Below the pieces are notes generated by a model, which did no database searches, had not been told where the DNA came from, and saw only the letters and a program-made list of their open reading frames with translations. Made by a program: the position numbers and the translations under genes. From positions 12,454 to 76,453 of the forward strand of contig CAZJQD010000013.1 of NCBI GenBank assembly GCA_964548165.1: DNA of 64,000 nt, read 5' to 3'. This document shows positions 3,259 to 36,968 of the stretch, one piece after another. Positions within the stretch are counted from its first letter, which is position 1; every line of letters begins with the position of its first letter. The stretch comes from an uncultured bacterium. Its GTDB lineage: Bacteria > UBA8481.

Positions 3259-3390
3259 CGGTGGGGCGAAGGCCCAGGCCCGGGCCCTCGCACGGCAACG
3301 AAAACGGGCCGCCGCAAGGATGCGGCGTCATTGATGGCCAGGGATGGCGGATTCGGTCCCCTAGTCGGGGCTCACGAGGAGTGATACGCC

Positions 3391-6300
3391 ATGTTGAGGT
3401 CATTGTTCACCGGTGTCACCGGTCTGAAGGCGCACCAGGTCCGACTCGATGTCGTGTCCAACAACATCGCCAACGTCAATACGACGGGATTCAAGGCGTC
3501 CCGTGTCCGCTTTGACGACGTCCTGTCGCAGACGATCGAGATCGCCACGGCCCCGGAATCCGGGCGTGGCGGACAGAATCCCAAGCAGATCGGCCTGGGA
3601 GTCCTGGGAACAACCATCTCCCGGGACATGGGCCAGGGCGCGGTCGAGATCACCAACAAGACGACCGACCTCGCGATCCAGGGCAACGGCTTTTTCGTCG
3701 TTCGCGACGGTGAGACCGTGGCCGAGTGGTACACGCGAGACGGCAACTTCGCCATCGACCGCGACGGCAGTCTCGTCATGGCCTCGAATGGCTTTCGCGT
3801 CCAGGGGTGGAATGGCTACCTCGACACGCAGTCCCAGACCTGGACCATCAACTCCTCGAATCCCGTGGAAGACATCGAGCTGAACCTGACCCAGCAGATG
3901 GATCCGGTCGCCACCTCGACGATCACGCTCTCCGGGAACCTCGACTCGCGCCTCTCGTCCGCCATTGATCCGGTTCGCGTGAGCTGGACGAAGAACGGGA
4001 CGACGCGCGAGGTGGAGATGCGCTTCACGCACGTCCACCCGACCGAGAACCTCTACAAGTGGAGCGTGTTCGACCCTTCCGTGATCGATCCCGCCACCGG
4101 CGACTTCACGCTCATCCCGACCGACATGAACGGCATGGAGGCCTCGGGCATCATCCAGCTCGATGAGAACGGCCGCGTCATGAGGCACTTCGTCAATACG
4201 GCCGATGACAATGCGGCCGATCCGGCGGCGTATTTCATCGACGGGAGCGCCCTGGAGATGCCCGACGACAACGACGTATGGGCCATCGCGAACCCGACCC
4301 GCACGTTCAATGGCTATGATTACTTCTCGCTCGATTCCAACGGCGACGGCGACGCGATCCAGGTGGAGACCAACTCGGCCGCCTCGACGGTCTCCTCGGC
4401 CCAGTCCACGGTGGCGGGCATCTTCGATGTCACGCTCCGCGTGCCCAACGCCCCGCTCTCGTCGACCGCGGTCGCGAACGGCACCTACCCGAACGGGTTC
4501 ACCAACGACGCCATCTACCAGACGGGCGTCGGCGCCGCGGGCAACCTGGCGATGCCGGGCGAGGGCCTGGGCGTGCCGGTCCAGTTCATCCAGTCCGTCT
4601 CGAACGAGGTCGTGAGCCGGATCTCGGCGGACCGCACGACGCTCCAACTGGCCAACGCCCTGGTCGTCGGCACCGGGCGCGAGAATCCCAACGCCGCGGG
4701 CCAGATCGTCAGCGGTACCGCGGGCGGTACCGACACGGACAGCATCCAGCTCATCATCGACGGCGTGCAGTGGACGCGGATCGCGAACTCGGCCGCATTC
4801 ACGCCTGGCGCGAGCCAGTTCAAGATCAACGAGGAACTGGGCATCATCACGCTGGGATCCGCGTTGCCCGTGGGCGTCAATGCCATCGCCAACTACGCCT
4901 ACGAGGTTCGTCCGACCAACACGCGGTCGATCCCCGCCGGGCGCACGGTCGCGCTCGAGTTTGGCGGCGTTCCCGGCAACGTCTCGACATCGACCGTGGA
5001 CCAGTCCACGTTTTACGTCCCGGGCTCCATGACGCTCACCATTACCGATGTCTCGGCCATTCCGCCGACCGCGGAGACCTTCACGGAGGTTGCCTTCGGG
5101 CAGGCGCCGGGCGCCAACCAGTACGTGGTCGATCCCGTGGTCGGAACGGTCACGTTCGGCACGTTCTCCAACGCGCAGGCCGTCGCTGCGGCAGACACGC
5201 TCTCCGGGTCCTACCGCACCTTCCGTAACTGGGCGGGCGAGCAGACGGTGACGGTCGCCGTCGGGACTACCGTGGACGCCGCGGAAGCCGCGTTCCTGGC
5301 GCTCGCGGATTCGGGCGGCCAGAATCCCCCGTACGTTCCCAACTCGGTCGGCACCATCCAGCTCACCAACACGTCCGCCGCGACGACGGAACCCTTCACG
5401 GAGGTCGCCTTCGGCAACACGCTCGGCATCCGCCAGTTCTCCGTCAACCCGGCAACGGGCGACATCTCGTTCGGCACCTTCTTCAACGGGGAGGCCGTCG
5501 ATGAGGCCGCCGACACCTTCGCGACCGTCGCTCATGAATTCGACTTCTTCGAGAAGCGCATCGGCATCACGGACGGAGCGGCGACCGCGCACGGCCAGTT
5601 CGCCAACACGCAGAACGCCCTGGGCTGGAACGATCTCTGGCGCGTCCAGACCATCGCCGCCGGCGGCGCGGAGACCGGCGACGTCCGTCTTTGGCTCCAA
5701 GGAGACGGGTTCGCCGCCGTCAATGACCCGAACGAGCCGACGCAGGCTTCGCTCGCCTACCTCCCCACGATCTCCTCGACGCTGAGGGCGGAGATGAACT
5801 ACCAGTCGGATGATCGCGTCAACATCATCATCCCGAACGGCCTCACGAAGACGCCGAACGTCAACCCCCTGACGGACCTCACGAGCGAGTCCTTCGCGAT
5901 CACGCCCAACACCTCGCAGATTACCGGCAACAACGGGAACAACAACCAGGCGGACACGGGCGACACCAACACCGTCTCGGTGAATACGCCCGAGGATTAC
6001 ACCTACGCGACCGCGGTGGAGGTTTTCGACTCGCTCGGCACGCCCTGGAATGTCCCGATCCGCTACGAGAAGATCGATACCAACCGGTGGGTCATGTATG
6101 CCATCGATCCGACCGACCCGGATGGCCAGCGCATCGCCGGCTTCCGCCTCCTGGGCTTCGACGCCAACGGGCGCTTCAACACGACGTCGACGGTCCCCTA
6201 CGAATCGCCGACCGCGAACGGCACGACCAACGACGGCTTCCTCGGCATCTACTTCGATCCGCCGCGGGCGGGCGGAGCGCCTCCGACCGAGGAGGGCGCG

Positions 6301-6753
6301 GACCCGGTCCAGATCAACCTGAACCTGGACGACCTGGTGCAGACCGCGCGGCGCACCAATGCCGTCGTCTCCGAGCAGAACGGATTCCCTCCCGGCAAGC
6401 TCGAGAGCTTCTCGTTCAATGACCAGGGCTTCATGGTCGGGCTCTTCGACAACGGCCGCAGTCTCAACCTCGCCCGCGTCGCCCTCCAGGGCTTCGTCAA
6501 CCCCGCCGGCCTCATCGCCGTCGGTGGCAACATGTTCAAGAACACGGTCAACGCCGGAAAGTTCGGCAGCCCGCAGCGACCGGGATTCGACGGCGTGGGC
6601 ACGATCGTGCCGGGCGCCCTGGAGAGCTCGAACGTCGATCTCTCCGTCGAGTTCGTCGACCTCATCATTACCCAGCGCGGTTTCCAGGCCCAGTCCCGCA
6701 CGATCACCACGGCGGACCAGGTCCTCCAGGAAGTGCTCTCGCTGAAGAGGTAA
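3391..6753 (+). CDS. flgE: Giant flagellar hook protein FlgE (1120 aa) with an expanded central region
   Basis: N-terminus MLRSLFTGVTGLKAHQVRLDVVSNNIANVNTTGFKASRV (Flg_bb_rod). C-terminus GALESSNVDLSVEFVDLIITQRGFQAQSRTITTADQVLQEVLSLKR. AGGAG ribosome-binding site upstream. Confidence 0.85.
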   Translation: MLRSLFTGVTGLKAHQVRLDVVSNNIANVNTTGFKASRVRFDDVLSQTIEIATAPESGRGGQNPKQIGLGVLGTTISRDMGQGAVEITNKTTDLAIQGNGFFVVRDGETVAEWYTRDGNFAIDRDGSLVMASNGFRVQGWNGYLDTQSQTWTINSSNPVEDIELNLTQQMDPVATSTITLSGNLDSRLSSAIDPVRVSWTKNGTTREVEMRFTHVHPTENLYKWSVFDPSVIDPATGDFTLIPTDMNGMEASGIIQLDENGRVMRHFVNTADDNAADPAAYFIDGSALEMPDDNDVWAIANPTRTFNGYDYFSLDSNGDGDAIQVETNSAASTVSSAQSTVAGIFDVTLRVPNAPLSSTAVANGTYPNGFTNDAIYQTGVGAAGNLAMPGEGLGVPVQFIQSVSNEVVSRISADRTTLQLANALVVGTGRENPNAAGQIVSGTAGGTDTDSIQLIIDGVQWTRIANSAAFTPGASQFKINEELGIITLGSALPVGVNAIANYAYEVRPTNTRSIPAGRTVALEFGGVPGNVSTSTVDQSTFYVPGSMTLTITDVSAIPPTAETFTEVAFGQAPGANQYVVDPVVGTVTFGTFSNAQAVAAADTLSGSYRTFRNWAGEQTVTVAVGTTVDAAEAAFLALADSGGQNPPYVPNSVGTIQLTNTSAATTEPFTEVAFGNTLGIRQFSVNPATGDISFGTFFNGEAVDEAADTFATVAHEFDFFEKRIGITDGAATAHGQFANTQNALGWNDLWRVQTIAAGGAETGDVRLWLQGDGFAAVNDPNEPTQASLAYLPTISSTLRAEMNYQSDDRVNIIIPNGLTKTPNVNPLTDLTSESFAITPNTSQITGNNGNNNQADTGDTNTVSVNTPEDYTYATAVEVFDSLGTPWNVPIRYEKIDTNRWVMYAIDPTDPDGQRIAGFRLLGFDANGRFNTTSTVPYESPTANGTTNDGFLGIYFDPPRAGGAPPTEEGADPVQINLNLDDLVQTARRTNAVVSEQNGFPPGKLESFSFNDQGFMVGLFDNGRSLNLARVALQGFVNPAGLIAVGGNMFKNTVNAGKFGSPQRPGFDGVGTIVPGALESSNVDLSVEFVDLIITQRGFQAQSRTITTADQVLQEVLSLKR
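5065..5540 (+). repeat. Internal tandem duplication (about 100 aa per unit) inside the giant flgE
   Basis: The protein repeats E(T/P)FTEVAFG(Q/N)...V(D/N)P..G..(T/S)FGTF.N..AV..AAD. The DNA repeats ccttcacggaggt(t/c)gccttcgg at about 5077 and 5392. Confidence 0.6.
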
Positions 6754-9304: not shown

Positions 9305-10228
9305 GTGAAATCAATGCCGCAATTCCGCAGTCTGACACCTAGCGTGATTTCGACCGTCCACCGTCCCGTTCTCATGGATGCCGTGCGGGAAGCTTTCACC
9401 ATGGCTCCTGGTACCGTCATCGACGCCACCGGGGGCGGGGGCGGGCACAGCGCCCTGCTCCTGGAACTCGGCCATACCGTCATCGCCTGCGACCGCGATC
9501 CCGCCGCCTGTGCCCGCCTGGAGGCCCGTTTCCAGGGCCATCCGCGGCTACGCGTTCATGCCGGCGACTTCCGGTCCTTGCCCCCCGGCCCCGTCCAGGG
9601 ACTCCTCGCCGATCTCGGACTCTCCTCCGACCAGCTCGACTCCGCCGATCGTGGCTTCTCGTTCCAGAACGACGCCTATCCGGACATGCGCATGGATCCT
9701 GCCCTCCCGCAATCCGCCGCTGACCTGATCGCGACCTCCGATCTCTCCACCCTGGCCCGCATCCTCAAGGTCTACGGCGAGGAACCACGGGCGGCCCGCA
9801 TTGCCCGTGCCCTCGTCGGCCGCTCGTTCGCATCCTGCAAGGAACTGGCCGCGATCATCCAGGCCGCGTCGGGCTACCATGGATCCCGAACGCACCCGGC
9901 CACGCGCACCTTCCAGGCCCTCCGGATCGCCGTGAACGACGAGCTGGGACAGCTCGAGGCCCTGCTCGATGCCGCGCCGCGCGTGGTGGAGCCCGGCGGC
10001 AGGATCGCGATCATCTCCTTCCACTCCCTCGAAGATCGGATGGTCAAGCGGGCGATGGCGGCGTGGTGCGGGGTCTGTCGCTGTCCGCCGGGCCTTCCGG
10101 TCTGTGCCTGCGGCGTTAAACCTTGCGCAAAGCCTCTATGGAAAGGCTTTCGAGGTGCCGATGACAGGGAAGTAGCCGACAATCCGCGCTCACGAAGTGC
10201 CCATATCCGGGGTGTCGTTCGCGTCTAG
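9305..10228 (+). CDS. rsmH: 16S rRNA (cytosine1402-N4)-methyltransferase RsmH/MraW
   Basis: HRPVLMDAV...VIDATGGGGGHS...; the start may instead be the GTG at 9344. Confidence 0.85.
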   Translation: MKSMPQFRSLTPSVISTVHRPVLMDAVREAFTMAPGTVIDATGGGGGHSALLLELGHTVIACDRDPAACARLEARFQGHPRLRVHAGDFRSLPPGPVQGLLADLGLSSDQLDSADRGFSFQNDAYPDMRMDPALPQSAADLIATSDLSTLARILKVYGEEPRAARIARALVGRSFASCKELAAIIQAASGYHGSRTHPATRTFQALRIAVNDELGQLEALLDAAPRVVEPGGRIAIISFHSLEDRMVKRAMAAWCGVCRCPPGLPVCACGVKPCAKPLWKGFRGADDREVADNPRSRSAHIRGVVRV

Positions 10229-10248
10229 TCGGCTCAACACACCATGCC

Positions 10249-10614
10249 ATGAAGCCTACGACGCTGAACATGCAGGAAGCCGAGACCTGGAAGCGCACCA
10301 AGGTCCACTTTGCCGTCATCGGTGCGCTCATGCTCTTCGCGCTCGCCATCCTGACCCAGGAGAACACCTTTCATGGCATGACGCGAGAGCTTCTGAAGCT
10401 CGAGCGATCCCGGCGCGATCTCGTCGAGGAGCGCGATCGCCTGACGCTGACCGTCGAGCAGTATCGGCATCCCGCCCGGATCCGCACGCTGGCCACCGAG
10501 CACTATGGGCTGGCCGTACCGGCGCCGGACAATGTCCAGGATGTTCCCGCTGCTCCTCCATCCCGGAGGGAACCGGGGCTCGAGGCGCGCGAGCGAGAGG
10601 CCGCGAGGCCATGA
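10249..10614 (+). CDS. ftsL: Cell division protein FtsL (septum formation initiator family)
   Basis: 121 aa with one transmembrane helix (VHFAVIGALMLFALAIL) followed by a coiled-coil. Sits between rsmH and murE. Confidence 0.7.
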   Translation: MKPTTLNMQEAETWKRTKVHFAVIGALMLFALAILTQENTFHGMTRELLKLERSRRDLVEERDRLTLTVEQYRHPARIRTLATEHYGLAVPAPDNVQDVPAAPPSRREPGLEAREREAARP

Positions 10615-12104
10615 CCGCGGGGGGAGGGGCGAGACCGGTGGTGACCATGCCCTCCATGCCGCTCGACGAGCTCCTCGACGGGTTGCCCGTCCCGCCCCTG
10701 TCCTCGACGTCCATCCCGATCGCCGACGTGGTGACCGATTCCCGCGACGTCACCCCTGGAGCGCTCTTCGTGGCGATCAAGGGGAGCGTGACCGACGGAC
10801 ATGACCACGCGGAGGATGCCGCTCGCCGCGGCGCCGTGGCCGTCATCGCCGCACGCCCCATCGCCGCGCTCTCCAGCTCCTCGAAGCCCATTCCGGTTCT
10901 CGTCCTTCCTGATCCCGCCGCCGCGCTCCCCACGCTCGCCGTTCGCTTCTTTCGCGATCCCTCGTCGACGCTCACCGTCCTCGGCGTCACCGGCACGAAC
11001 GGCAAGTCGACGACGACCTACCTCCTGCAGTCCGTGCTCGCGGCCGCCGGCTCCCGGTGCGCCGTTCTCGGCACCCTCGGCTACGCCATCGGCCATCACG
11101 TCTACGAGGCTCCCAACACCACGCCCGACGCGCTCCTCCTCCAGCGGCTCTTCGCGTCCTGCCGCGCCGAGGGCCTCAGCCACGTCGCGATGGAAATTTC
11201 CTCGCATGCCCTCGCGCTCGATCGGATCGCAGGAACGCGGGTGACGACCGCCGCCTTCACCAACTTCACGCAGGACCACCTGGATTTCCACGGCACCATG
11301 GACGCGTACTTCGCGGCCAAGGCGAGAGTGTTCGCGCTCACGGGCGGCCGCGGCGCCGTCAATGCCGAGGATGAGCGCGTTCGTGGACTGACCCGCCGCT
11401 ATCCCGGCCTCGTGACCTTCGGCACCGGAGGTCGCGTCCAGGCCACGAACATCCGCCTCGGGCTCAAAGAGACCCACTTCACCCTCACCCACGACGATCG
11501 CGCGCGGACGGTCACGACGAGCCTGGTGGGAGAACCTAACATCCAGAATGCCCTGGCGACCGCGGCCCTGGCGCTCGATCTTGGAATCGAGGACGAGGTG
11601 ATCGTCCGGGGCCTGACCGCGGCCCGCGCCCCGCGCGGGCGCTTCGAGCTGGTGCCGACCGCGGGAAATTATGCGGTCGCCGTCGATTACGCGCACACGC
11701 CCGACGCGCTCGAACGGCTCCTGGGAGCCGCGAGGGCCCTCAAGCCGCGCCGCGTGCTCCTCGTCTTCGGTTGCGGCGGCGATCGCGATCGCACGAAGCG
11801 GCCGCGCATGGGCGCGCTCGCGGCCTCGCTGGCGGACGAGTCCTGGCTGACATCCGACAACCCGCGGACCGAGGACCCGGGCAGCATCCTCGACGAGATC
11901 GAGGCCGGCATGGCCGGCGGCCGCTGGCGCCGAGAGCCCGATCGCCGAGCGGCGATCCGCGACGCGGTCGCCGCCCTTCGGGAGGGCGACCTTCTTCTCG
12001 TGGCGGGCAAGGGGCACGAGGACTACCAGATCATCGGGCGCGAGAAGCGCCCATTCGACGACCGCGCCGAGCTCATGACGGCGCTGAAGGAGCAGGGGAG
12101 ATGA
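10611..12104 (+). CDS. murE: UDP-N-acetylmuramoyl-L-alanyl-D-glutamate--2,6-diaminopimelate ligase MurE
   Basis: GVTGTNGKSTT P-loop and DYAHTPDAL; ATGA overlap with the ftsL stop. Confidence 0.9.
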   Translation: MTAGGGARPVVTMPSMPLDELLDGLPVPPLSSTSIPIADVVTDSRDVTPGALFVAIKGSVTDGHDHAEDAARRGAVAVIAARPIAALSSSSKPIPVLVLPDPAAALPTLAVRFFRDPSSTLTVLGVTGTNGKSTTTYLLQSVLAAAGSRCAVLGTLGYAIGHHVYEAPNTTPDALLLQRLFASCRAEGLSHVAMEISSHALALDRIAGTRVTTAAFTNFTQDHLDFHGTMDAYFAAKARVFALTGGRGAVNAEDERVRGLTRRYPGLVTFGTGGRVQATNIRLGLKETHFTLTHDDRARTVTTSLVGEPNIQNALATAALALDLGIEDEVIVRGLTAARAPRGRFELVPTAGNYAVAVDYAHTPDALERLLGAARALKPRRVLLVFGCGGDRDRTKRPRMGALAASLADESWLTSDNPRTEDPGSILDEIEAGMAGGRWRREPDRRAAIRDAVAALREGDLLLVAGKGHEDYQIIGREKRPFDDRAELMTALKEQGR

Positions 12105-13126
12105 ACCGTATCGTTCACTGGAATGCCACGACGCTGGGCGAACTCGCCGCCGCCGCGGGCGCGGCCCTGGAGCGCGGTGCCGCGACACGGCGCATTTGCG
12201 CCTTCTCCGTGCCCGCCGACTCGTCGTCCGCGCTCGTGGAGAAGATCGACGGACCCGGCATGGACCGGTTCACCGTGGTCGCCGTACCCCAGGGAGCCGG
12301 GGCCGCTGCGGCCCTGTCGGCGATCGCGGCCGCCGGCGCGGTCGCCCTGGTGGAACGGGAACTGCCCGTTCCTGCCGCGATGGCCGTCCTGCGCGTCCCC
12401 GTCCTGGCCGACGCCATCGCTCGCCTGGCCTCGGCGCGCCGCGCCGCCTCGCGAGCGCGCGTCCTTGCCGTCGTCGGCGCCGACGCCGCCGCGATCGCGG
12501 TGCCGCTGGCCGCCACCTGCAAGCGCCGCTGGCGAACGGTCAGCGCCATGGTGCCCGGCGACCTCGACGCGGCCCTTCTGGCCCTCACTCCGTCGACCGA
12601 TCGCGCCGTCGTCGTCCTGGACGCTGCGAATCTCGTCTCCTTCGTCGCCGACATGTCCCTGGCCGCACCGGCGCTTGTCGTCGCCGCTCTTCCGCGCCCC
12701 GGGGATCCCGCACCCCTGGACTTCGCCGCGGCCCTGCCCTCGACCTCGGTCCTGATCCTCGATGATGCCGATCCCCGCGCCGGTCTCATCCGGCAGTCTG
12801 CGTCCTGCCGCGTCCTGGCGCCCTCCGCGCTCCTGGGATCCGCCGGCGATCCGGCAGGTGCCGCGCACGGCGGCCCTTACCAGGGGCCCGTCGTCGTTCC
12901 CGCTCGAGGTCGCTTTACCTGTCGCGGCCTCGTCGTGCACACCTCCCTGCCTCCCGCCGCGGTCTCCGCGTCCCGGCTCGCCGCGGCTGCCGCGCTCTTC
13001 ACCGGCACCGACGCCCTCGACATCGCGGACGCGTTCGCGCGGCTCCTGCCGGCCGCGATGCCCCATCCCGTCCCCGCCGCTTCTGCGTTCGTGGAAGCGG
13101 CTTCGACCCTGGCCCGCGCCGTCTGA
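12101..13126 (+). CDS. Ala-rich ORF in the syntenic murF position; possible degenerate MurF-like protein lacking the P-loop
   Basis: ATGA overlap with murE and TGAcATG junction with mraY. Weak MurF-like segments: N-terminus TTLGELAAAAGAAL, VPVLADAIARLASARR (compare MurF VDDTLKALQDLA), and VLAVVGADAAAIA where GSNGKTT would be expected. Confidence 0.4.
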   Translation: MNRIVHWNATTLGELAAAAGAALERGAATRRICAFSVPADSSSALVEKIDGPGMDRFTVVAVPQGAGAAAALSAIAAAGAVALVERELPVPAAMAVLRVPVLADAIARLASARRAASRARVLAVVGADAAAIAVPLAATCKRRWRTVSAMVPGDLDAALLALTPSTDRAVVVLDAANLVSFVADMSLAAPALVVAALPRPGDPAPLDFAAALPSTSVLILDDADPRAGLIRQSASCRVLAPSALLGSAGDPAGAAHGGPYQGPVVVPARGRFTCRGLVVHTSLPPAAVSASRLAAAAALFTGTDALDIADAFARLLPAAMPHPVPAASAFVEAASTLARAV

Positions 13127-13127
13127 C

Positions 13128-14243
13128 ATGCTCTATCATCTCGCGACGCTGGCCGATGTCTTCGGGCCCTTGCGGCTCTTCCAGTACATCACCTTCCGCG
13201 CCGCGTTCGCGACCGTCTTCGCCCTGTTGCTCTCCGTAGCACTGGGCCCCGCCTTCATTCGGGCCCTGGGCGCCCTGAGGATGGCTCACCTCAAGGATCG
13301 CGAGGAGCTCGACTTTCACGCTCACAAGCTGGGAACGCCGACGATGGGCGGGCTCCTGATGATCGGCTCCGTCTCGGCCTCCATGATCCTCTTCGGCAAC
13401 TTCACCAACCGCTACGTCCCGCTCCTCCTTCTCGTCACTATTGGCCTCGCGTCGCTCGGCTTCATCGACGACTACCTGAAGATGACCAAGAAGAACACCA
13501 AGGGTCTCCCCGGCCGCTACAAGCTCCTCGGCCAGGGCTTCCTCTCGCTCATGCTCGGTCTTTCCCTCTTCATCCTCCCCACCGAGGCGGGCCGCCTCTG
13601 GCTCGGCGAGGCCGTCACCATCGACTATGCCTCCACGCTCACCGTTCCCTTCCTCAAGAACCTCCTCATCCCCCTGGGCCTGCTCTACATTCCCTTCATC
13701 ATGCTCGTTGTCACCGGGGCCTCGAACGCGGTCAACCTCACCGATGGCCTGGACGGCCTGGCCGCCGGTTCCACGATCGCGTGCGCGGGCGCCCTCGCCG
13801 GGCTCACGTACATCACCGGCCACTCCAACTTCTCCACCTACCTCAATGTCCTCTACATCCGCGATGTCGGCGAGATCACCGTCTTTCTCGGGGCCCTCAT
13901 CGGCGCGCTCCTGGGGTTCCTCTGGTTCAACGCCTATCCCGCCCAGGTCTTCATGGGCGACACCGGATCGCTCGCGCTCGGCGGCGCGCTCGGCACCGTG
14001 GCCGTCTTCATCAAGCAGGAACTGCTCCTCGTGATCATCGGCGGCGTCTTCGTCGCGGAGGCGCTCTCCGTCATCATCCAGGTCTTCTCGTTCAAGACGA
14101 CGGGCCGGCGCGTCTTCCGCATGGCGCCCCTGCATCATCACTTCGAGAAGCAGGGATGGCCGGAGCCGAAAGTCATCGTGCGATTCTGGATCGTTTCCTT
14201 CATATTGACCCTGGTCGCGCTCGCGACGCTGAAATTGAGGTAG
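13128..14243 (+). CDS. mraY: Phospho-N-acetylmuramoyl-pentapeptide transferase MraY
   Basis: MLYHLATLADVFGPLRLFQYITFRAAFA... and a polytopic membrane profile. Confidence 0.9.
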   Translation: MLYHLATLADVFGPLRLFQYITFRAAFATVFALLLSVALGPAFIRALGALRMAHLKDREELDFHAHKLGTPTMGGLLMIGSVSASMILFGNFTNRYVPLLLLVTIGLASLGFIDDYLKMTKKNTKGLPGRYKLLGQGFLSLMLGLSLFILPTEAGRLWLGEAVTIDYASTLTVPFLKNLLIPLGLLYIPFIMLVVTGASNAVNLTDGLDGLAAGSTIACAGALAGLTYITGHSNFSTYLNVLYIRDVGEITVFLGALIGALLGFLWFNAYPAQVFMGDTGSLALGGALGTVAVFIKQELLLVIIGGVFVAEALSVIIQVFSFKTTGRRVFRMAPLHHHFEKQGWPEPKVIVRFWIVSFILTLVALATLKLR

Positions 14244-14250
14244 ATTTCCC

Positions 14251-15630
14251 GTGTTCTCGTTGAATGGACAGAAGGTGACCATCCTCGGATGGGCCCGATC
14301 GGGACGCGCCAGCGCGCGCCTGGCCGCCTCCCTGGGCGCCCGCGTCTTCGTCTCCGACAATCGACCCGCATCCGCATTCGACGCCGAGTCACTGGCCGAG
14401 TTGAAGAACTATGACCACGAGCTCGGCGCCCATACCGATCGCGCCCGCGACGCCGCCCTCATCGTGCTCTCGCCCGGCATCCCGCCTGAGATCCCCTTCC
14501 TGGCCGATTTCAAGGGAGAGGTCTGGAGCGAGCTGGAGCTGGCCACGCGCGTGATGCCTTGCCGCATCGTCGCCGTCACCGGTACCAACGGCAAGACGAC
14601 GACGACGACGCTCATCGGCAAGATACTCGAGGAGGCTTACACCGGAGGGCGCACCTGGATTGGCGGCAACATCGGCGTCGCCGTCGCGGGATTTGCCGCC
14701 GCGGTGCGCGAGGAGGACGTCTGTGTCCTCGAGCTCTCCTCGTTCCAGCTCGAGACCATCCGCGCCTTCCATCCCCGGATCGCCGTCTACCTGAATCTTC
14801 GCTCGGACCATCTCGATCGCTACCCTGACTTCGCCGCCTACGCCGCCGCCAAGGATCGCATCCTGGCGAACATGACCGCGAACGATGTCGTCATCCTCAA
14901 CCTCGACAACGCTCACACGCGAGCCCTGGCGGAGCGGCTGAAGGGCACCGAGGGTGCGCCGCGGGTGGTGACCGTCTCCGCCGCCGGCCCCGCCGACTAC
15001 ACGCTGACACCGGCCTACGACGAGCGCCTGCTGGAGGCGGTCAAGTCGCCCGAGAACCTCCTCTCCGCCGTCGCCGTTGCGTCCCTCCTCGAGCTTGATC
15101 CCGCCCGCGTCGCGTCCGCCTTGTCCGCGTTCCAGGGGCTCCCGCACCGGATCGAACCCGTGGGCGTGGTGGACGGGGCGACGTGGTACAACGATTCCAA
15201 GGCCACGAACGTGCACTCCGTCGAGGCCGCCCTCCTGCGCGTTCCCGCCCCCGTCGTCCTCGTCATGGGAGGGAGAGACAAGGGCGAGAACTACGCCGAG
15301 CTTCGCGAGCTGGTCGCCGCGCGGTGCCGACGTGTCATCGCCTACGGCGAGGCCGGGCCGCGGATCGCCGCGCTCCTGGAGTCCGCTGGCGTTCCCGTCG
15401 ACGTCATCCCATCCTTCGACGCCGCCGTCACGGCCGCGCGATCGGCGTCGCCGGGCTGTGCGAGCGTGCTCCTCTCGCCGGCCTGCTCGTCCTACGATCA
15501 GTTCAAGGACTACGTCGCCCGCGGCGATCGCTTCCGTGCCCTGGTCACCGCGATGGCCTCCGCCGCGCCTTCCTCCGTCGCGGTTGAGCCCGGCCTGGTC
15601 CGCGCCGTCCCGGCCGGAGGGCGTCGATGA
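14251..15630 (+). CDS. murD: UDP-N-acetylmuramoylalanine--D-glutamate ligase MurD
   Basis: VAVTGTNGKTTTTTLIG P-loop, GTG start. Confidence 0.9.
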   Translation: MFSLNGQKVTILGWARSGRASARLAASLGARVFVSDNRPASAFDAESLAELKNYDHELGAHTDRARDAALIVLSPGIPPEIPFLADFKGEVWSELELATRVMPCRIVAVTGTNGKTTTTTLIGKILEEAYTGGRTWIGGNIGVAVAGFAAAVREEDVCVLELSSFQLETIRAFHPRIAVYLNLRSDHLDRYPDFAAYAAAKDRILANMTANDVVILNLDNAHTRALAERLKGTEGAPRVVTVSAAGPADYTLTPAYDERLLEAVKSPENLLSAVAVASLLELDPARVASALSAFQGLPHRIEPVGVVDGATWYNDSKATNVHSVEAALLRVPAPVVLVMGGRDKGENYAELRELVAARCRRVIAYGEAGPRIAALLESAGVPVDVIPSFDAAVTAARSASPGCASVLLSPACSSYDQFKDYVARGDRFRALVTAMASAAPSSVAVEPGLVRAVPAGGRR

Positions 15631-16829
15631 GCGTCGTTCGTCGGCGGTCCGCCGGCCGCATTCCTCCGCGTCGTCCCGCGACGACGCCGTTCTCGTTCTT
15701 CGCCCGCAAGCGCGCCCCCGCTCCGGCCGACTACGACGCCACCCTGAACACCCCGCCCGACGCCCGGCTCGCCACGGCGACCGTTCTCCTGATGGCGATC
15801 GGCATGGTCGCCGTCTACTCCGCCGGTCCCGCGCGCGCCGCGGACGGGAGCATGGCGGGCAACATGCTCGTGCGCCAACTCATCGCCGGGATCATCGGGT
15901 GCGTGGCCATGTACGGCTGTTCGCGTCTCTCCTTGAAGCACATCGATCGCTTCACGCTCGTGGTTGTCGGGCTAGCCATCATCGCCCAGTTCCTCGTCTT
16001 CATTCCCGGCATCGGCGCCACGGTCAAGGGGGCGACGCGGTGGGTGAGGCTCGGTCCCATCTCGTTCCAGCCCTCCGAACTGGCGCGACTGGCGAGTGTC
16101 CTCTACGCGGCGCGCTTCGCCGCGCGATACCCCGAGATCGTCACCGACTGGAAGCAAGTCTGGCAGGCCTTCCTGGTCCCCGCGATCTTCACCGTCCTCG
16201 TCTATTTCCAGCGCGACCTCGATACCGCGCTCTTCATGCTCTTCTACGCCGGCATCGTCTACTTCGTCGCGGGTATGCCTCTCGTTGCCCTCGGCGGCGG
16301 CGCGGTGCTCGCCGTGGCCGGCGGCGCCTACAAGGTCTGGACCGAGCCTTACCGCATGCAGCGCATGACCGCCTTCATGAATCCCGAGGCTCATACCCAG
16401 GACGCGGGCTACCAGGTCTGGCAGGGCCTGATCGGCATGGGGAGCGGCGGGTGGTTCGGCCGGGGGCTCGGGGGATCGGTGCAGAAGTTCGGATTCCTGC
16501 CGGAGGCTCACACGGACTTCATCTTCGCCGTGATCGGCGAGGAGGGCGGCCTCCTGGCGACCCTCGTCGTCGTCGCGCTCTTCGCCACGATCGCCTGGCG
16601 CGGCTACGGGATCGCGCTCGGTCAGCCCATTCCCTACGCGCGGTACCTGGCCGTCGGCATCACGGCGATGGTGACGATCCAGGCGCTCGTGAATTTGCTC
16701 GTGGTCACGAGCTGTATTCCCGTCGCCGGAATTCCCCTGCCCCTGGTCTCGTCCGGCGGCACCAGTGTCGTCTTCATCGCGGCCGCGCTCGGAATTCTCT
16801 GGGGGCTCTCGCGCCGGCGAGACGCCTGA
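15627..16829 (+). CDS. ftsW: Cell division / peptidoglycan glycosyltransferase, FtsW/RodA (SEDS) family
   Basis: Polytopic membrane protein with the ISFQPSELARLA SEDS motif; ATGA overlap with murD. Confidence 0.85.
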   Translation: MSVVRRRSAGRIPPRRPATTPFSFFARKRAPAPADYDATLNTPPDARLATATVLLMAIGMVAVYSAGPARAADGSMAGNMLVRQLIAGIIGCVAMYGCSRLSLKHIDRFTLVVVGLAIIAQFLVFIPGIGATVKGATRWVRLGPISFQPSELARLASVLYAARFAARYPEIVTDWKQVWQAFLVPAIFTVLVYFQRDLDTALFMLFYAGIVYFVAGMPLVALGGGAVLAVAGGAYKVWTEPYRMQRMTAFMNPEAHTQDAGYQVWQGLIGMGSGGWFGRGLGGSVQKFGFLPEAHTDFIFAVIGEEGGLLATLVVVALFATIAWRGYGIALGQPIPYARYLAVGITAMVTIQALVNLLVVTSCIPVAGIPLPLVSSGGTSVVFIAAALGILWGLSRRRDA

Positions 16830-16833
16830 CCGC

Positions 16834-17982
16834 ATGAAGCTCGTCATCGCCGGCGGCGGGACCGGTGGGCACGTCTATCCCGGCATCGCCGTTGCGGAGG
16901 AAGTGCGCTCGCGGGGCGGAGACGTCGTCTTCGTGGGCACGGAGCGCGGGCTTGAATCGCGCATCGTTCCCGCGGCCGGTTTTCCGCTCCTCATCGTGCC
17001 CGCGTGCGGCTTCCTCCGTCGCCGTCCCATCCAGAACGCCGGCGCCGTCATCGAGAATGGGCGAGGCGTCTTCGCGGCGCGACGCCACCTGCTGGATTTT
17101 CGGCCCGACGTGGTCCTGGGGATGGGGGGGTTTGCCAGCTTCGCGGCGGGCGCGGCGGCGCGCCACCTGGGGATCCCACTGGTCATCCACGAGCAGAACG
17201 CGGTGCCGGGACTTGCCAATCGCGTCCTCGCGCGGATGGCCACCCGCATCCTGACGTCCTGGACCGGCGCCGTTCCGGGCGGGACGAGGGGCACGACCCG
17301 CGTCGGGCTCCCCGTTCGCGCCGCATTCCGAACGCTTGATTCCTCCGCAACCCGTGCGAGGGCTCGCATCGCCCTCGAGCTGGCCGAGGACGACCTCCTG
17401 GTCGTGATCTTCGGCGGATCCCGCGGCGCTCGATCGCTCAACGAGGCCGTCGCGGCCTGGATTTCTTCACCGTCCTTCACCGGCACCGCCGGCATTCGCG
17501 TCCTCTGGGCGACGGGAAGCGATCACGTGGACGCCTTCCGCGCGGCCGCCGCCGCCGCGGGCCCTCGCGTTCGCGTGGTGCCCTATATCGAGCGCATGCC
17601 GGAGGTGCTCCCGGCCGCCGACCTGGCCGTGACGCGATCGGGCGCCATGACGCTGGCCGAGCTTGCGGCCTGCGGGGTTCCCTCGATCCTCGTGCCGTAT
17701 CCCTACGCCACCGGCGACCACCAGACCGCGAACGCGCGCTCCTTCGTGAACGCGGGCGCGGCCATCCTCGTGCCGGACGCCGCGCTCTCCGCGCGCCTCG
17801 GCGACGCGATCGCGGACCTCGTGGCCCATCCCGAACGTCGCCGGGCGATGGCGGAGGCCGCCGGGACGCAGGGAAATCCGCAAGCCGCCGCCGAAATTGC
17901 CGATATACTGGAGACGCTCGCAATCATGTCCCACACCCCGCCGCCAGCGACGCCGCCCGTGCCGTCGCCCCGCTCACTATGA
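16834..17982 (+). CDS. murG: UDP-GlcNAc--undecaprenyl-PP-MurNAc-pentapeptide GlcNAc transferase MurG
   Basis: MKLVIAGGGTGGHVYPGIAVAEE... Confidence 0.9.
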   Translation: MKLVIAGGGTGGHVYPGIAVAEEVRSRGGDVVFVGTERGLESRIVPAAGFPLLIVPACGFLRRRPIQNAGAVIENGRGVFAARRHLLDFRPDVVLGMGGFASFAAGAAARHLGIPLVIHEQNAVPGLANRVLARMATRILTSWTGAVPGGTRGTTRVGLPVRAAFRTLDSSATRARARIALELAEDDLLVVIFGGSRGARSLNEAVAAWISSPSFTGTAGIRVLWATGSDHVDAFRAAAAAAGPRVRVVPYIERMPEVLPAADLAVTRSGAMTLAELAACGVPSILVPYPYATGDHQTANARSFVNAGAAILVPDAALSARLGDAIADLVAHPERRRAMAEAAGTQGNPQAAAEIADILETLAIMSHTPPPATPPVPSPRSL

Positions 17983-19343
17983 TCCGGCTACAGCGCATTC
18001 ACTTCATCGGTATCGGCGGCACCGGCATGTCCGGCATCGCCGAGATCCTGATGTCGGCGGGCTACAAGGTCTCCGGTTCCGACCTCAAGGAGACGCCCGT
18101 CACGACGCGCCTGGCCCAGCTCGGCGCCCGCGTCTGCCTGGGGCACAAGGCCGATCACGTCGGCGACGCCGATGCAGTCGTCGTGTCATCCGCGGTCGGG
18201 AGAGAAAATCCCGAGGTGCGCGCCGCTCGCGAGCGCGGCCTGCCCGTGGTTCCGCGCGCGGAGATGCTCGCGGAGCTGATGCGGCTCAAGTACGGCATCG
18301 CCATCGCGGGCACGCACGGCAAGACCACGACGACATCGTTGACCGCCATGGTCCTGACGGCGGGCGGCCTTGATCCCACGGTCGTCATCGGTGGCCGGCT
18401 CGAACAGCTCGGGAGCGGCGCCAAGAGCGGGGCCGGCGATTACTTTGTGGCCGAGGCCGACGAATCGGACGGGTCGTTCCTGAAGCTCTCGCCCACGGTC
18501 TCCGTCGTGACCAACATCGACGACGATCACCTCGATTACTACGGGGACATGGGGCGGTTGACCGCCACGTTCAGCGAGTTCGCCAACAAGGTGCCGTTCT
18601 ACGGTTTCGGCGTCCTCTGCCTCGACGATCCGCGCATCCGCGGCATCGCGGCGATGGCCAGTCGTCGCATGGTCACCTACGGCCAGCACGCGGACGCCGA
18701 TGTCCGCGCGGAGGATGTCACGCTCTCCTCGACCGGCAGCAGTTATCGGCTGGTCCTGCGCGGCGTATCTCTCGGCTCGGTCTCGCTCACCGTCACCGGC
18801 GTGCACAACGTCGTCAACAGCCTGGCCGCCGCCGCGGTGGGCCTGGAGCTCGGCATTCCCGCCGCCGACGTCATCCGCGGCCTGGCCGCCTTCACCGGCG
18901 TCGACCGCCGTCTCCAGCTCAAGGGCCGCCATCCCGCCGGCTGGGCCGTCTACGACGACTATGGCCACCACCCGACCGAGATCACGGCCACGATCGCGGC
19001 CGCGCGTTCCCTGGCCGCCGGTGGCCGGGTCATCATCCTCTTCCAGCCCCATCGCTATTCGCGCACCGCGCTCCTCTTTGACAAGTTCGCCTCCGCTCTC
19101 GCCGCCGCCGACCGCGTCGCGCTCCTGCCGATCTACCCGGCCGGCGAGCCCCAGCGCGACGGCGTCTCCAGCGAGCTCATCACCGAGTCGCTGATGCTCA
19201 AGGGCTACAGCGCCTTCGAGATCGTGACGGCCGTCGATATCCCGCGCCTGGCCGCGACCTTCCGCGCCGGCGACGTGATCCTCACGATGGGCGCCGGCGA
19301 CATCACGAGCTGGGGCGATCAGCTCCTGGCGGTCGGCGCCTGA
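17979..19343 (+). CDS. murC: UDP-N-acetylmuramate--L-alanine ligase MurC
   Basis: IHFIGIGGTGMSGIAEIL and GTHGKTTTTSL. Confidence 0.9.
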   Translation: MIRLQRIHFIGIGGTGMSGIAEILMSAGYKVSGSDLKETPVTTRLAQLGARVCLGHKADHVGDADAVVVSSAVGRENPEVRAARERGLPVVPRAEMLAELMRLKYGIAIAGTHGKTTTTSLTAMVLTAGGLDPTVVIGGRLEQLGSGAKSGAGDYFVAEADESDGSFLKLSPTVSVVTNIDDDHLDYYGDMGRLTATFSEFANKVPFYGFGVLCLDDPRIRGIAAMASRRMVTYGQHADADVRAEDVTLSSTGSSYRLVLRGVSLGSVSLTVTGVHNVVNSLAAAAVGLELGIPAADVIRGLAAFTGVDRRLQLKGRHPAGWAVYDDYGHHPTEITATIAAARSLAAGGRVIILFQPHRYSRTALLFDKFASALAAADRVALLPIYPAGEPQRDGVSSELITESLMLKGYSAFEIVTAVDIPRLAATFRAGDVILTMGAGDITSWGDQLLAVGA

Positions 19344-20329
19344 TGGCTGCCGGCGACGCGAAGAACCCGGCGCCCTCCGAGGCGACCGTGGAGGATGTCG
19401 TGGTCCGGACCTCCGAGAGCACGCTGGTGAGGAACCGGACGGTCGAGGAGGTCATGCTCGCGCTGGGCGCGGTGCGAAGCGAGCCGATGAGCCGGCACAC
19501 GACGCTCCACGTGGGTGGCCCGGCGGAGTGGTACCTGGAGGCGGAGAACTTCGATGACATCGCGGTCGCCCGCATCGTGGCGCGCAGTCGTCGGCTCCCG
19601 GTCACCTTCATCGGCAATGGATCCAACCTGCTGGTTGCCGACGCCGGCATCCGGGGCCTCGTGATCAAGGCCACGTCCGCGCTCGCCACCATCACCGACC
19701 TCGGGATGGGCCTCCTCCGGGTCGGCGCCGGCGTGCGCCTGCCCGAGCTCGCGCGCTACTTCCGGGATTCCGGGGTGGGCGGCTTCGAGTGGGGGTTCGG
19801 CGTGCCGGGATCCGTGGGCGGCGCCATCTACATGAACGCGGGAACGCGGGACGGCGAGATGAAGGACGTGATCGAGCGGGTCATCATCGTCGGCAGGGGA
19901 GGCGGGCTCGAGGAGCTCCTGCCCGCGGACTGCCAGTTCGCGTACCGCTCGTCGCGGTTCCAGCGCACCAACGAGCTGATCGTCGCTGCCATCGTCCGGC
20001 TCCCGGAGAAGCCCTACAACACCGACGCCGCGCGGCGCGCGCTCGAGGATCGCAAGCGCACCCAGCCGTTGCAGCTCCCCAACTGCGGCTCGGTCTTCAC
20101 CAATCCCAAGGGCGACTACGCCGCCCGGCTCATCGAGGAGTGCGGGCTGAAGGGGCGCAAGGTCGGGGGCGCGGAGATATCCACGCTGCACGCCAACTTC
20201 ATCGTCAACCGCGGCGGCGCCACGGCTTCCGATGTCCTCGCGCTCATCCGTCTCGCTCAGCAGGAGGTGAAGGCCAAGTTCGGCGTGGACCTGCACACCG
20301 AGGTCAAGATGCTGGGAGAATGGCCGTGA
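19343..20329 (+). CDS. murB: UDP-N-acetylenolpyruvoylglucosamine reductase MurB
   Basis: FAD-binding type: HTTLHVGGPAEW...FIGNGSNLLVADAGIRG. Confidence 0.85.
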   Translation: MAAGDAKNPAPSEATVEDVVVRTSESTLVRNRTVEEVMLALGAVRSEPMSRHTTLHVGGPAEWYLEAENFDDIAVARIVARSRRLPVTFIGNGSNLLVADAGIRGLVIKATSALATITDLGMGLLRVGAGVRLPELARYFRDSGVGGFEWGFGVPGSVGGAIYMNAGTRDGEMKDVIERVIIVGRGGGLEELLPADCQFAYRSSRFQRTNELIVAAIVRLPEKPYNTDAARRALEDRKRTQPLQLPNCGSVFTNPKGDYAARLIEECGLKGRKVGGAEISTLHANFIVNRGGATASDVLALIRLAQQEVKAKFGVDLHTEVKMLGEWP

Positions 20330-21261
20330 AGGTCGCCGTTCTCATGGGCGGGCTCTCGCGCGAGCGCGATGTCTCGCTGAGGACCGGCGCGGCGGTGGTG
20401 GCCGCGGTCGAGAAGCTGGGGCACGAGGTCGTGCCCGTCGATGTCGGCCCCGATGTGGCCACGGTGCTTGCCCAGGCGCGCCCCGACGTCGCGTTCATCG
20501 CCCTGCACGGCCGTGGCGGCGAGGACGGGACCATGCAGGGGCTCCTCACGATCCTCGGCATTCCTTTCACGGGTTCCGGCGTTCTCGCCTCGGCGGCCGC
20601 CATGGACAAGGCTTTCTCCAAGAGGCTCTTTCGCGCCGCCGGGCTCCCGGTCGCCGATGGTCTCGTCGTCCAGGCTGGGGATCCGGTGCCCGAACCCTCG
20701 TTCCCTCTTCCCTGGATCGTGAAGCCCTCGAACGAGGGGTCGTCGGTGGGCCTCGTCATCGTGCGCCGCCGGGAGGATCTCGCCCCCGCCCTCGGGGAGG
20801 CCGCTCTTCACGATCGCGATATCCTCGTGGAGCGCTTCATCGAAGGCGTGGAGATCACGGTCGGGATCCTGGGGGGCGATGAGCCGTTTGCCCTGCCTGC
20901 CATCGAGATCGCGCCGAAATCGGGCGTCTACGACTACGCGTCCAAGTACACCAAGGGCGCCACCGAGTACATCATCCCGCCGCGCCTGCCGGCCGGCGAG
21001 ATCGCCCGCTGCCAGGCCCTCGCTCTCGCCGCGCACCAGGTGCTCGGCTGCCGCGGCGTGAGTCGCGTCGACCTGCTCGTCAATTCCGACGGCCCGGTCA
21101 TCCTGGAGGTCAACACGATCCCGGGCATGACCGAGACGTCGCTCCTGCCCAAGGCCGCGGCCGCGCATGGCCTTCCTTTCCACGAGATGATCGGGCGCAT
21201 CATCGGCTGGGCGTTGGAGGGGCGAGAGCGGTCCGCATCGGAACCGGGGCGAGAACGATGA
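20320..21261 (+). CDS. ddl: D-alanine--D-alanine ligase
   Basis: MAVKVAVLMGGLSRERDVSLRTG...ALHGRGGEDGTMQGLL... Confidence 0.9.
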   Translation: MAVKVAVLMGGLSRERDVSLRTGAAVVAAVEKLGHEVVPVDVGPDVATVLAQARPDVAFIALHGRGGEDGTMQGLLTILGIPFTGSGVLASAAAMDKAFSKRLFRAAGLPVADGLVVQAGDPVPEPSFPLPWIVKPSNEGSSVGLVIVRRREDLAPALGEAALHDRDILVERFIEGVEITVGILGGDEPFALPAIEIAPKSGVYDYASKYTKGATEYIIPPRLPAGEIARCQALALAAHQVLGCRGVSRVDLLVNSDGPVILEVNTIPGMTETSLLPKAAAAHGLPFHEMIGRIIGWALEGRERSASEPGRER

Positions 21262-22097
21262 GCGCTCGGGAGTCGGGCGGCGGGGCCGTCAGGGGGCAGA
21301 AGGTCGCCGGGCGGGGCCGCCGATCGTCGGCAGTGGCGTCGACCTCGGGCGGGGGAGGCGGGGTCTCGCGTGAGACCACCGAGAAGCTGGCCACCGTGAT
21401 CGCCGGCGCCATCCTCCTGGCCGTGATCGCGGGCGCCGGAATTCTCCTCGTGGCGATGGGCGGCAAGGCGTATCGCTACGTGGTCGCCACCGACCGGCTC
21501 CTCGTGGAGGAGCTCGAGGTCGAGGGCCTGGCCGCGTTGACGCCGGAGGAGATCATTCGCCTCGCCGGGATACAGAAGCGCGTCTCGATCCTCGACGTGG
21601 ATCTCGCCGCCGCCGCCGCGCGCGTGAGAACTCACCCCCGGGTGGCGACGGCCGTCGTGGAACGACACCTGCCGCGCCGGATCGTGATCCGGGTCTCCGA
21701 GCGCGTCCCGGTTGCTCTCATCCAGCAGGACGGCGTCATCAAGGGCATCGACGTCTCCGGGACGGTCGTCCCGCTGATCCCGACCCGGGAGAACGTCAAG
21801 GGCCCCATCCTCACCGGCAGCATCACCCAGGCCTCGCCCGAGCTCCTCCAGGACGCCCTGACCGTGCTGGACCTCCTGCGTCCCGACCTGGTGCCCCGCA
21901 TCTCCGAGCTCCGCATGGACAACACCGGCGGCGTCACGCTCCTGACGACCGGCACCCCCATCGTCATTCGGCTGGGCCGCGGTGAGATGCCCGGGAAGGT
22001 GGAGCGCCTGCGCGCCGCTCTCAAGCTCTTCGAGGAGCGCAACGAGCAGAAGGAATACATCGATCTCCGCTTCCAGGACATCGTCACTCGTCCCTAG
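21258..22097 (+). CDS. ftsQ: Cell division protein FtsQ/DivIB (POTRA domain)
   Basis: Transmembrane helix followed by a POTRA domain; last gene of the dcw run. The next gene is convergent. Confidence 0.75.
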   Translation: MSARESGGGAVRGQKVAGRGRRSSAVASTSGGGGGVSRETTEKLATVIAGAILLAVIAGAGILLVAMGGKAYRYVVATDRLLVEELEVEGLAALTPEEIIRLAGIQKRVSILDVDLAAAAARVRTHPRVATAVVERHLPRRIVIRVSERVPVALIQQDGVIKGIDVSGTVVPLIPTRENVKGPILTGSITQASPELLQDALTVLDLLRPDLVPRISELRMDNTGGVTLLTTGTPIVIRLGRGEMPGKVERLRAALKLFEERNEQKEYIDLRFQDIVTRP

Positions 22098-23393: not shown

Positions 23394-23648
23394 GAGGGTC
23401 TCCTTGGCGAGCTACGACGGTCGGATCGGACGTAGCCGATGGGGCAACGGGACGGGTTTTCGAGATCCTCCCGGGGGATGACGACGTCCTGGCCGAGCCG
23501 GACGGATGGGGCGATGGGCATTGCGACCTCGATGCGATCTCTGACAGCGGCTATCGTAGTGCCCACCGCCTTGCAGTCAAGTTTCTCCGCCCCCCGCGAT
23601 CGCGCGGAGGATGGACTCGCGCGTCCTCGACCGGGATAATGCGAGACC

Positions 23649-36619: not shown

Positions 36620-36967
36620 GTGAAGTGGTACTGCCCGAATTGCGTCAACGAAGACGCGTCCGGGTATACGCATTGCTTGGATTGCGGCACGGAATTGACG
36701 ACGGAGAAGCCCGTCGCTCCGCCCCCGCAAGAGCCCGAAACCGCCCTTGCCGGCGTGTTTTACATGCCGCTTGATGCCGACATCGCGAAAGGCATTCTGG
36801 ACGCCGAAGACATTCCTTGCATCTTGTGCGACGACAACACGATCGCGGCCAACAACTTGCTGGGCATGGCGCTCGGGGGAATTAAGCTCCTGGTCCACCG
36901 GGACAACCTGGATTTCGCCGTGCAGCTTCTCCGTGAACGTCATCCTGCGAGTTTTCGAGACCAGTAG
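36620..36967 (+). CDS. Small zinc-ribbon protein with a DUF2007-like C-terminal domain
   Basis: VKWYCPNCVNEDASGYTHCLDCGTEL followed by DADIAKGILDAEDIPCILCDD...KLLVHRDNLDFAVQLL. GTG start. Confidence 0.45.
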   Translation: MKWYCPNCVNEDASGYTHCLDCGTELTTEKPVAPPPQEPETALAGVFYMPLDADIAKGILDAEDIPCILCDDNTIAANNLLGMALGGIKLLVHRDNLDFAVQLLRERHPASFRDQ

Positions 36968-36968
36968 G

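Follow-up and report, generated by a model that had tools for sequence, protein, structure and literature searches.

Introduction

MurF, the UDP-N-acetylmuramoyl-tripeptide--D-alanyl-D-alanine ligase (EC 6.3.2.10, TIGR01143; the E. coli enzyme being PDB entry 1GG4), is regarded as an essential and universally conserved step in the synthesis of the peptidoglycan precursor, and as an antibiotic target. In the stretch of DNA analysed here (the window; 64,000 nucleotides of contig CAZJQD010000013.1, from an uncultured bacterium), the place of its gene in the dcw cluster, between murE and mraY, is taken by an open reading frame (ORF) encoding 341 residues, hereafter ORF X. Comparison with related clusters shows that ORF X descends from the cluster's own murF and has lost the residues of the ligase, but is still a translated gene under purifying selection.

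ORF X resembles MurF in occupying the murE-mraY slot, in having collinear N-terminal and central domains and in finding nearly all of its best matches among the MurFs of its own phylum. It differs in having neither the P-loop, nor the conserved Glu, His, Lys, Asn and Arg residues, nor the C-terminal domain, and in failing all curated models. A general parallel is found in pseudoenzymes, catalytically dead paralogues that are kept as scaffolds or regulators. Like these, ORF X keeps fold-level residues and loses catalytic ones, under selection that is relaxed yet purifying; unlike the usual pseudoenzyme, the dead copy lies in the ancestral locus and it is the active copy that is only presumed. 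A full-text literature search returned no paper on Mur-ligase pseudoenzymes.

Two described proteins are closer to hand. In Bordetella pertussis, MurE and MurF form a natural chimera in which a hydrophobic patch of the MurF N-terminal domain is shielded by the C-terminus of MurE; the chimera remains stable in a form that lacks the MurF C-terminal domain (PMC10214165). A two-domain MurF can therefore exist as a folded partner of MurE. ORF X has the same two-domain extent as the truncated chimera and is translationally coupled to murE, but it is a natural, separate and catalytically degenerate protein, whereas the B. pertussis form arose in the laboratory, by proteolysis of an active enzyme. In seed plants, the MurE homologue PAP11 is a structural subunit of the plastid RNA polymerase (PMC11561172) and so represents a Mur-ligase fold selected for an apparently structural role rather than for peptidoglycan synthesis, as is proposed for ORF X. 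PAP11 differs in deriving from MurE, in being eukaryotic and nuclear-encoded, in having all three domains and in belonging to an unrelated complex.

Results

Homology of ORF X to MurF

From its MraY homologues, the named matches of which are 70% and 64% identical, the window is assigned to Candidatus Hydrogenedentota, a phylum whose GC range reaches 69% (PMC11406978). The same genome survey does not mention murF, and no paper was found that cites the sequence runs SRR15237813 and SRR18671895, from which assemblies used below were derived. In seven relatives with MraY sequences 64-78% identical, the same cluster has an intact MurF of 465-490 residues at exactly the position of ORF X, between murE and mraY (L083, L084, L086/L087 (GCA_002780065.1), L088 (GCA_003697085.1), L091 and L092 (GCA_964637705.1)); an eighth contig, L090, breaks off within the gene but still shows an intact MurF C-terminal domain. 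Across the 43 mraY-anchored loci checked, among the matches listed from other phyla, the ORF 5' of mraY is in nearly every case a MurF with the motif GSxGKTT. ORF X has the position of a murF orthologue, murE-X-mraY, in a cluster that is otherwise collinear with those of the relatives.

Neither ORF X nor its homologue P0002, encoded on contig L082, is recognised by curated families. In NCBIfam neither has a match at E<=10, and the TIGR01143 cut-off of 288.6 bits is not reached (the slot protein of L083 scores 376 bits on this model). Pfam likewise gives no match, at E<=1 for ORF X and E<=10 for P0002, Mur_ligase_M (PF08245) included, and a profile of the two proteins found nothing among PDB sequences at E<=10. 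It is with the MurFs of the same phylum, and only with these, that the homology becomes decisive. Comparison by hhalign of ORF X and P0002 with five Hydrogenedentota MurFs gave a probability of 99.1%, an E-value of 1.4e-18 and a score of 135 over 302 collinear columns, compared with a mean of 14.6 +/- 1.9 and a maximum of 21.3 in 60 column shuffles. In BLASTP, Hydrogenedentota MurFs are matched with 27-35% identity over 107-337 residues and 41-62 bits (maximum of 300 shuffles, 25.4 bits), and MurFs of this phylum are the top pairwise matches in seven of seven cases for P0002 and seven of eight for ORF X. The homology found by both methods is thus upheld by shuffle controls.

Outgroup MurFs were taken from 31 mraY-anchored loci of other phyla (MraY about 50% identical, among the matches listed), and such loci also supplied outgroup sets for MurE, MurD and MurC. 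A hidden Markov model of the outgroup MurFs gives ORF X 12.6 bits (shuffle maximum 4.2) and P0002 only 2.2 bits, inside the shuffle range. With hhalign the score against the same MurFs is 44.3 over 284 collinear columns (column shuffles 14.5 +/- 2.2, maximum 20.4), and against the MurE, MurD and MurC profiles it is 25, 15 and 16. Homology in the N-terminal and central domains, closest to MurF, places ORF X by descent in the Mur ligase superfamily. When the window was searched by tblastn with the relatives' MurFs, ORF X was barely seen (23 residues, E 0.036), although BLASTP gives 50-60 bits; we attribute the weak match to seeding thresholds.

We conclude that ORF X is the in-situ descendant of the dcw cluster's own murF, because the same-phylum homology in hhalign and BLASTP, the best matches and the orthologous slot all point to it. 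A sequence-only reading of this DNA, made earlier, had proposed a degenerate MurF in the murF slot with faint MurF-like segments, and had named membership of an unrelated family as a finding that would count against it. The proposal is borne out: the homology is collinear and specific to MurF, and ORF X does not belong to an unrelated family. The profile alignment and the cluster comparison that it had suggested yielded, respectively, a protein with its N-terminal and central domains kept and its C-terminal domain gone, and the intact MurFs of the relatives described above.

For the relatives with an intact MurF, MurF identity (50-62%) tracks MurE identity (52-64%). ORF X is only 30-34% identical to the relatives' MurFs while the window's MurE is 49-62% identical to theirs, a pattern that points to a burst of change before the window and L082 organisms separated, on the branch leading to their ancestor.

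Residues lost and retained

In the hhalign alignment, residues 1-326 of ORF X match residues 1-330 (of about 469) of MurF, that is, the N-terminal and central domains. The N-terminal remnant has lost the TDSR and G-x-x-DGH motifs and carries an insertion of about 13 residues. In the central remnant the NNxxGxP motif, the Glu, the His, the conserved Lys and the Asn are lost, and two internal segments of about 6 and 11 residues are deleted. The Mur_ligase_C domain (PF02875), which in MurF binds the incoming D-Ala-D-Ala, is wholly missing, ORF X stopping at the equivalent of MurF residue ~330; identity in the last block is down to 0.12. ORF X is 124-149 residues shorter than the relatives' MurFs, the loss of the C-terminal domain and of the two internal segments being offset in part by the N-terminal insertion. 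The sequence-only reading had been right that a large piece is missing, and its figure of about 110 residues is slightly too low.

The losses fall on the residues that define the enzyme. Among 35 MurFs, 47 columns reach 90% conservation or more; ORF X keeps 8 of them and P0002 keeps 7. In the numbering of L083, the residues lost from ORF X include Gly118-Lys119-Thr120 of the P-loop, Glu166, His196, Lys210, Asn289 and Arg320, together with the DxYNANP motif and a C-terminal domain that contains DMLELG, His376 and KGSR. Catalytic roles for the central-domain Glu, His, Lys and Asn are established for Mur ligases, and Lys210 is the conserved lysine known to undergo carbamylation in MurD, MurE and MurF. 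These four, and NNxxGxP, are replaced or deleted in both relics. As the sequence-only reading had noticed, GADAAAIA stands in place of the P-loop, and it aligns exactly with the GSSGKTTT of related MurFs; P0002 has GISSRLLA there. With GADAAAI in one relic and GISSRLL in the other, the former P-loop site is therefore unconstrained between them.

What is retained has a different character. Both relics keep 31 of the 137 columns that are invariant in six MurFs of the phylum, and these are mostly strand, helix and core positions (RV.AV.G, RR.RT, T.RAV, CR, F.RG and LAAAAA..D.LD). Because the ligase residues are missing, ORF X almost certainly cannot ligate D-Ala-D-Ala. Judged by its sequence, it should not be annotated as MurF, since it lacks every family-defining feature of the enzyme that could be examined.

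Gene structure and selection

The ATG of ORF X, at 12101, overlaps the murE stop codon (ATGA, 12101-12104), and its TGA at 13124-13126 is separated by one base from the mraY ATG at 13128. The L082 locus has the same ATGA and TGA-N-ATG junctions and the same Shine-Dalgarno-like GAAGGAGCAGGGGA, one base differing just 5' of the ATG. The sequence-only reading had described an Ala-rich ORF of 341 residues, coupled to its neighbours by ATGA and TGAcATG; the ORF, its translation and its alanine content (26.6%) agree with this, and both junctions are read in the sequence. GC fractions of 0.79, 0.61 and 0.84 at the three codon positions fit coding on the + strand. The ORF of 368 residues that lies antisense to ORF X was considered as the true gene and rejected, as composition and substitution phase match the + frame; it is an incidental result of the Ala-rich, GC-rich coding on the sense strand. 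No promoter-like site was found in or adjoining ORF X. The terminator-like matches nearest to it are at 11972 (+ strand, at the murE 3' end) and 13514 (- strand, within mraY), and the nine such matches compare with 5.2 +/- 2.4 in shuffles, an unclear excess. The repeats in this region are brief GC-rich stretches that match by chance.

An exhaustive phmmer search of 1.84 billion representative sequences found one true homologue, P0002, of 333 residues and 52% identical to ORF X. A further match, P0003, was dismissed as a low-complexity repeat protein. A word-indexed search of 5.8 billion proteins, with ORF X and then with a profile of ORF X and P0002, returned only these two, and a scan of Joint Genome Institute (JGI) metagenomes with the ORF X profile confirmed no locus. 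P0002 lies on an 11.8-kb Logan contig locus, L082, from SRR18671895, in the order flgE, nifS, nifU, mraZ, mraW, ftsL, murE, X, mraY, the same synteny as in the window.

Ratios of nonsynonymous to synonymous substitution (dN/dS) between the window and L082 were calculated by the NG86 method (Table 1). Differences between the two ORFs at the three codon positions amount to 0.37, 0.25 and 0.56, and all five nucleotide-level indels that separate them are multiples of three (3, 3, 6, 9 and 27). The dN/dS values, the in-frame indels, the codon-position bias and the conserved junctions show that ORF X is translated and that purifying selection acts on it, though less strictly than on any other gene compared in the cluster. 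Loss of catalytic residues under purifying selection fits the pattern of a pseudoenzyme, with moderate support, the comparison being of one genome pair.

The remainder of the cluster

The cluster runs mraW, ftsL-like, murE, ORF X, mraY, murD, ftsW, murG, murC, murB, ddl, ftsQ. Its other Mur pathway proteins keep their conserved columns: MurE 95%, MurD 91%, MurC 99%, Ddl 98%, MraY 98%, MurB 100% and MurG 98%. A lone class B penicillin-binding protein (PBP) is encoded at 30584-32944, about 9 kb past the cluster, after a signal peptidase gene. Judging by this gene content, the cell evidently produces D-Ala-D-Ala, along with a peptidoglycan for which it is required. In a six-frame scan of the window, Mur-ligase P-loops were found only in MurE, MurD and MurC, and none in the ORF X region.

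Some features of the cluster do not concern ORF X. The cluster of the window (9305-22097) lacks an ftsI in the ftsL-murE interval, and neither ftsA nor ftsZ follows ftsQ; the same absences are seen in the contigs of L083, L084, L086/L087, L088 and L092 that span those junctions; this looks like a trait of Hydrogenedentota. FtsW (15627-16829) and Ddl of the window diverge from those of the relatives more than MraY and MurC predict (53% and 60% identity, compared with 67% and 75% between L083 and L084), perhaps because the lineage's GC content has shifted or because constraint on the two is slightly relaxed.

Table 1. Features in and around the cluster, by position in the window, with protein identity and dN/dS relative to L082
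Feature	Position	Strand	Description	Identity to L082	dN/dS
FlgE	3385-6750			93%	
NifS				76%	
mraW	9305-10228	+		74%	0.27
ftsL-like gene	10249-10614	+	no ftsI after it		0.15
murE	10617-12104	+	intact; GTNGKST P-loop; three Mur ligase domains; Mur_ligase_M 147 bits; 91/96 conserved columns	69.5%	0.29
murE/ORF X junction	12086-12104	+	Shine-Dalgarno-like GAAGGAGCAGGGGAG, then ATGA overlap; from sequence		
ORF X	12101-13126 (with stop codon)	+	pseudo-MurF relic, 341 residues; C-terminally truncated; ligase residues absent	53%	0.40
MurF N-terminal domain remnant	12101-12415	+	residues ~1-105, boundary approximate; from alignments		
MurF central (ATP-binding) domain remnant	12416-13078	+	residues ~106-326; from hhalign		
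Former P-loop	12476-12499	+	GADAAAIA, residues 126-133; aligned to GSSGKT[TS]T of relatives' MurFs		
Tail	13079-13123	+	15 residues, poorly conserved, in place of whole ~140-residue MurF C-terminal domain; from alignment		
Antisense ORF	12023-13129	-	368 residues; 24% Gly, 15% Arg; fully opposite ORF X		
ORF X stop/mraY start junction	13124-13130	+	TGAcATG; TGAgATG in L082		
mraY	13128-14243	+	intact; 109/111 conserved columns	90%	0.09
murD, ftsW, murG, murC, murB	14251-20329	+	all intact		
ddl (D-Ala-D-Ala ligase)	20332-21261	+	intact; start approximate; Pfam 176 bits; 56/57 conserved columns		

Other features of the loci

The window and L082 share 93% identity in FlgE, a very large protein (about 1120 residues; at 980-4342 in L082), but only 70-76% in MurE, MraW and NifS; the FlgE at the same place in L092 has 741 residues. 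Two proteins with MptE-like domains, presumably of the motility-accessory-factor (Maf) type, are encoded at 34343-35917 and 36699-40493, one of 1265 residues with a double domain; taken with the flagellar genes near the beginning of the window, they point to glycosylation of flagellin. A DegT-family aminotransferase gene on the opposite strand follows the dcw cluster, and beyond it, some 1.5 kb from the end of the cluster, comes a gene for a protein with a very strong DUF4914 match (23640-25583, 1026 bits); the relatives examined have no such gene called beside their clusters. Just downstream of the cluster in L084, an ORF of 89 residues (19831-20100, - strand) with histone-fold Pfam matches (PF00125, PF00808) is a candidate bacterial histone. 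In Desulfobacterales-type loci, stop-to-stop ORFs of about 1000 residues span murE and murF (L004 6991-9996, L016 6723-9815, L027 6911-9994 and L030 6844-9948) and probably encode natural fusions of MurE and MurF like the one known from B. pertussis (PMC10214165).

Discussion

Why does this organism keep, between murE and mraY, a MurF that has lost the means to act as a ligase? The explanation that we consider probable, on balance, is that ORF X is an ATP-ligase-dead relic of MurF kept for a non-catalytic role, an active MurF being encoded elsewhere in the genome. On this view a vertically inherited murF decayed at its own locus in the last ancestor shared by the window and L082 organisms, keeping its N-terminal and central domains as a recognisable scaffold. 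A competent MurF, acquired through duplication, relocation or horizontal transfer, may have released ORF X from catalytic constraint. ORF X is still translated in the dcw operon, under purifying selection weaker than that on its neighbours. Its product might serve as a structural partner of MurE, MraY or both in the cytoplasmic assembly line for peptidoglycan precursors, or might bind UDP-MurNAc-tripeptide. A non-catalytic role next to MurE is proposed because of the analogy with the B. pertussis MurE-MurF structure (PMC10214165).

Several points weigh against this explanation. Searches by tblastn with the relatives' MurFs over the 64-kb window revealed no other MurF-like gene, and the called genes of the 11.8-kb L082 locus include no second murF. 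No gene of the cluster evolves faster than ORF X (53% identity, compared with 69-90% for its neighbours), the evidence for selection comes from one pairwise comparison with synonymous divergence (dS) near 1, and the family numbers two members in about 15 billion proteins. The scaffold role is proposed by analogy only. Retention of the MurF fold is likewise something that we infer from sequence, and AlphaFold2, run on a two-sequence alignment, gave a pLDDT of 33 and no confident fold.

Could the gene, then, be an artefact, or an idle remnant? A sequencing or assembly error, such as a frameshift or a collapsed region that hides a normal murF, has practically no chance of being the answer and can be regarded as effectively refuted. 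GC-rich, Ala-rich sequence can be error-prone, but no error was found of the kind that the sequence-only reading had thought might restore a full MurF: NCBI and an independent Logan assembly of SRR15237813 give the identical protein; the same architecture recurs, in a protein of 333 residues, in a second organism whose DNA is only 57.5% identical; no P-loop or C-terminal-domain motif occurs in any frame of the region; and the single base between the ORF X stop and the mraY start leaves no room for a C-terminal domain. It is more conceivable, though still unlikely, that ORF X is a functionless relic, translated only because mraY and the genes downstream need translational coupling and an unbroken run of translation through the operon, so that selection acts on the frame and the protein is idle. 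Its rapid evolution, with the highest dN/dS of the cluster, would suit such a relic, as would the overlapping or abutting stop and start codons conserved on both sides, the lack of a confident AlphaFold2 fold and the ease with which long ORFs stay open at 68% GC, even the antisense frame being open for 368 residues. An idle protein should, however, approach a dN/dS of about 1, and every segment of ORF X lies at 0.31-0.49. Amino-acid identity has stayed at 53% despite a dS of about 1, with conserved blocks (IARLAxARRAASRARVLAV, RRWRT, PRPGD, ADPRAGL and RLAAAAAL..GTDxLDIAxAFAR), and many of the retained residues are invariant in Hydrogenedentota MurFs, 31 of these being kept by both relics. A mere spacer could also shrink, yet some 330 codons persist in both lineages.

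The remaining alternatives concern the pathway and the function of the protein. If the genome had no active MurF, the precursor would have to be completed differently, either as a tripeptide-only lipid II or with D-Ala-D-Ala added by an enzyme that is not a Mur ligase or by an altered MurE, MurD or MurC. The only gene in the murF slot lacks the ligase residues, neither the 64-kb window nor the genes called at the L082 locus include another MurF, and the loss is common to two diverged organisms and hence stable. We nevertheless regard this as improbable. Ddl is intact, and we know of no use for its product other than as the substrate of MurF; a class B PBP, an enzyme that needs D-Ala-D-Ala donor stems, is present; MurE, MurD and MurC are ordinary in length and motifs; and MurF is, to our knowledge, essential in all peptidoglycan-making bacteria studied. 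Of the two options that the sequence-only reading had raised, an active MurF elsewhere is favoured over an atypical pathway because Ddl and the rest of the pathway are intact. The region examined, moreover, is less than 2% of a genome, the phylum median being 4.68 Mb (PMC11406978). A variant in which this sublineage, lacking any competent MurF, would still build peptidoglycan with intact MurA-to-E-type steps, Ddl, MraY, MurG, FtsW and a PBP has a similarly low probability; D-Ala-D-Ala would then be attached by another kind of enzyme, or the stem peptide finished in a manner without precedent, with the dead relic as an adaptor for the new step. We are equally doubtful that ORF X, a MurF by ancestry only, has taken up a new and unrelated function, for example as a regulator or sensor that binds a nucleotide-sugar peptide. 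Purifying selection has persisted without the catalytic residues, and PRPGD and ADPRAGL are blocks of the lineage's own that are absent from MurF, two points in favour of such a change; but profile searches of Pfam, NCBIfam and the PDB showed no new domain or motif, and the gene is still in its ancestral operon position. A new function is at present indistinguishable from a scaffold role.

A second murF elsewhere in the genome is the likeliest story, and would in itself be unremarkable. What is unusual is a dead MurF orthologue kept under selection in its slot in the dcw operon, adjoining an otherwise intact pathway. ORF X is invisible to Pfam and NCBIfam, and reconstructions of the pathway would score murF as missing. 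If no active MurF exists, the pathway itself would be unconventional. If an active MurF is encoded elsewhere, ORF X would be a natural separation-of-function variant, arguing that the body of MurF has a non-catalytic role near MurE and MraY; it would then bear on the long-debated cytoplasmic complex of Mur enzymes, and would offer a ready-made probe for that complex.

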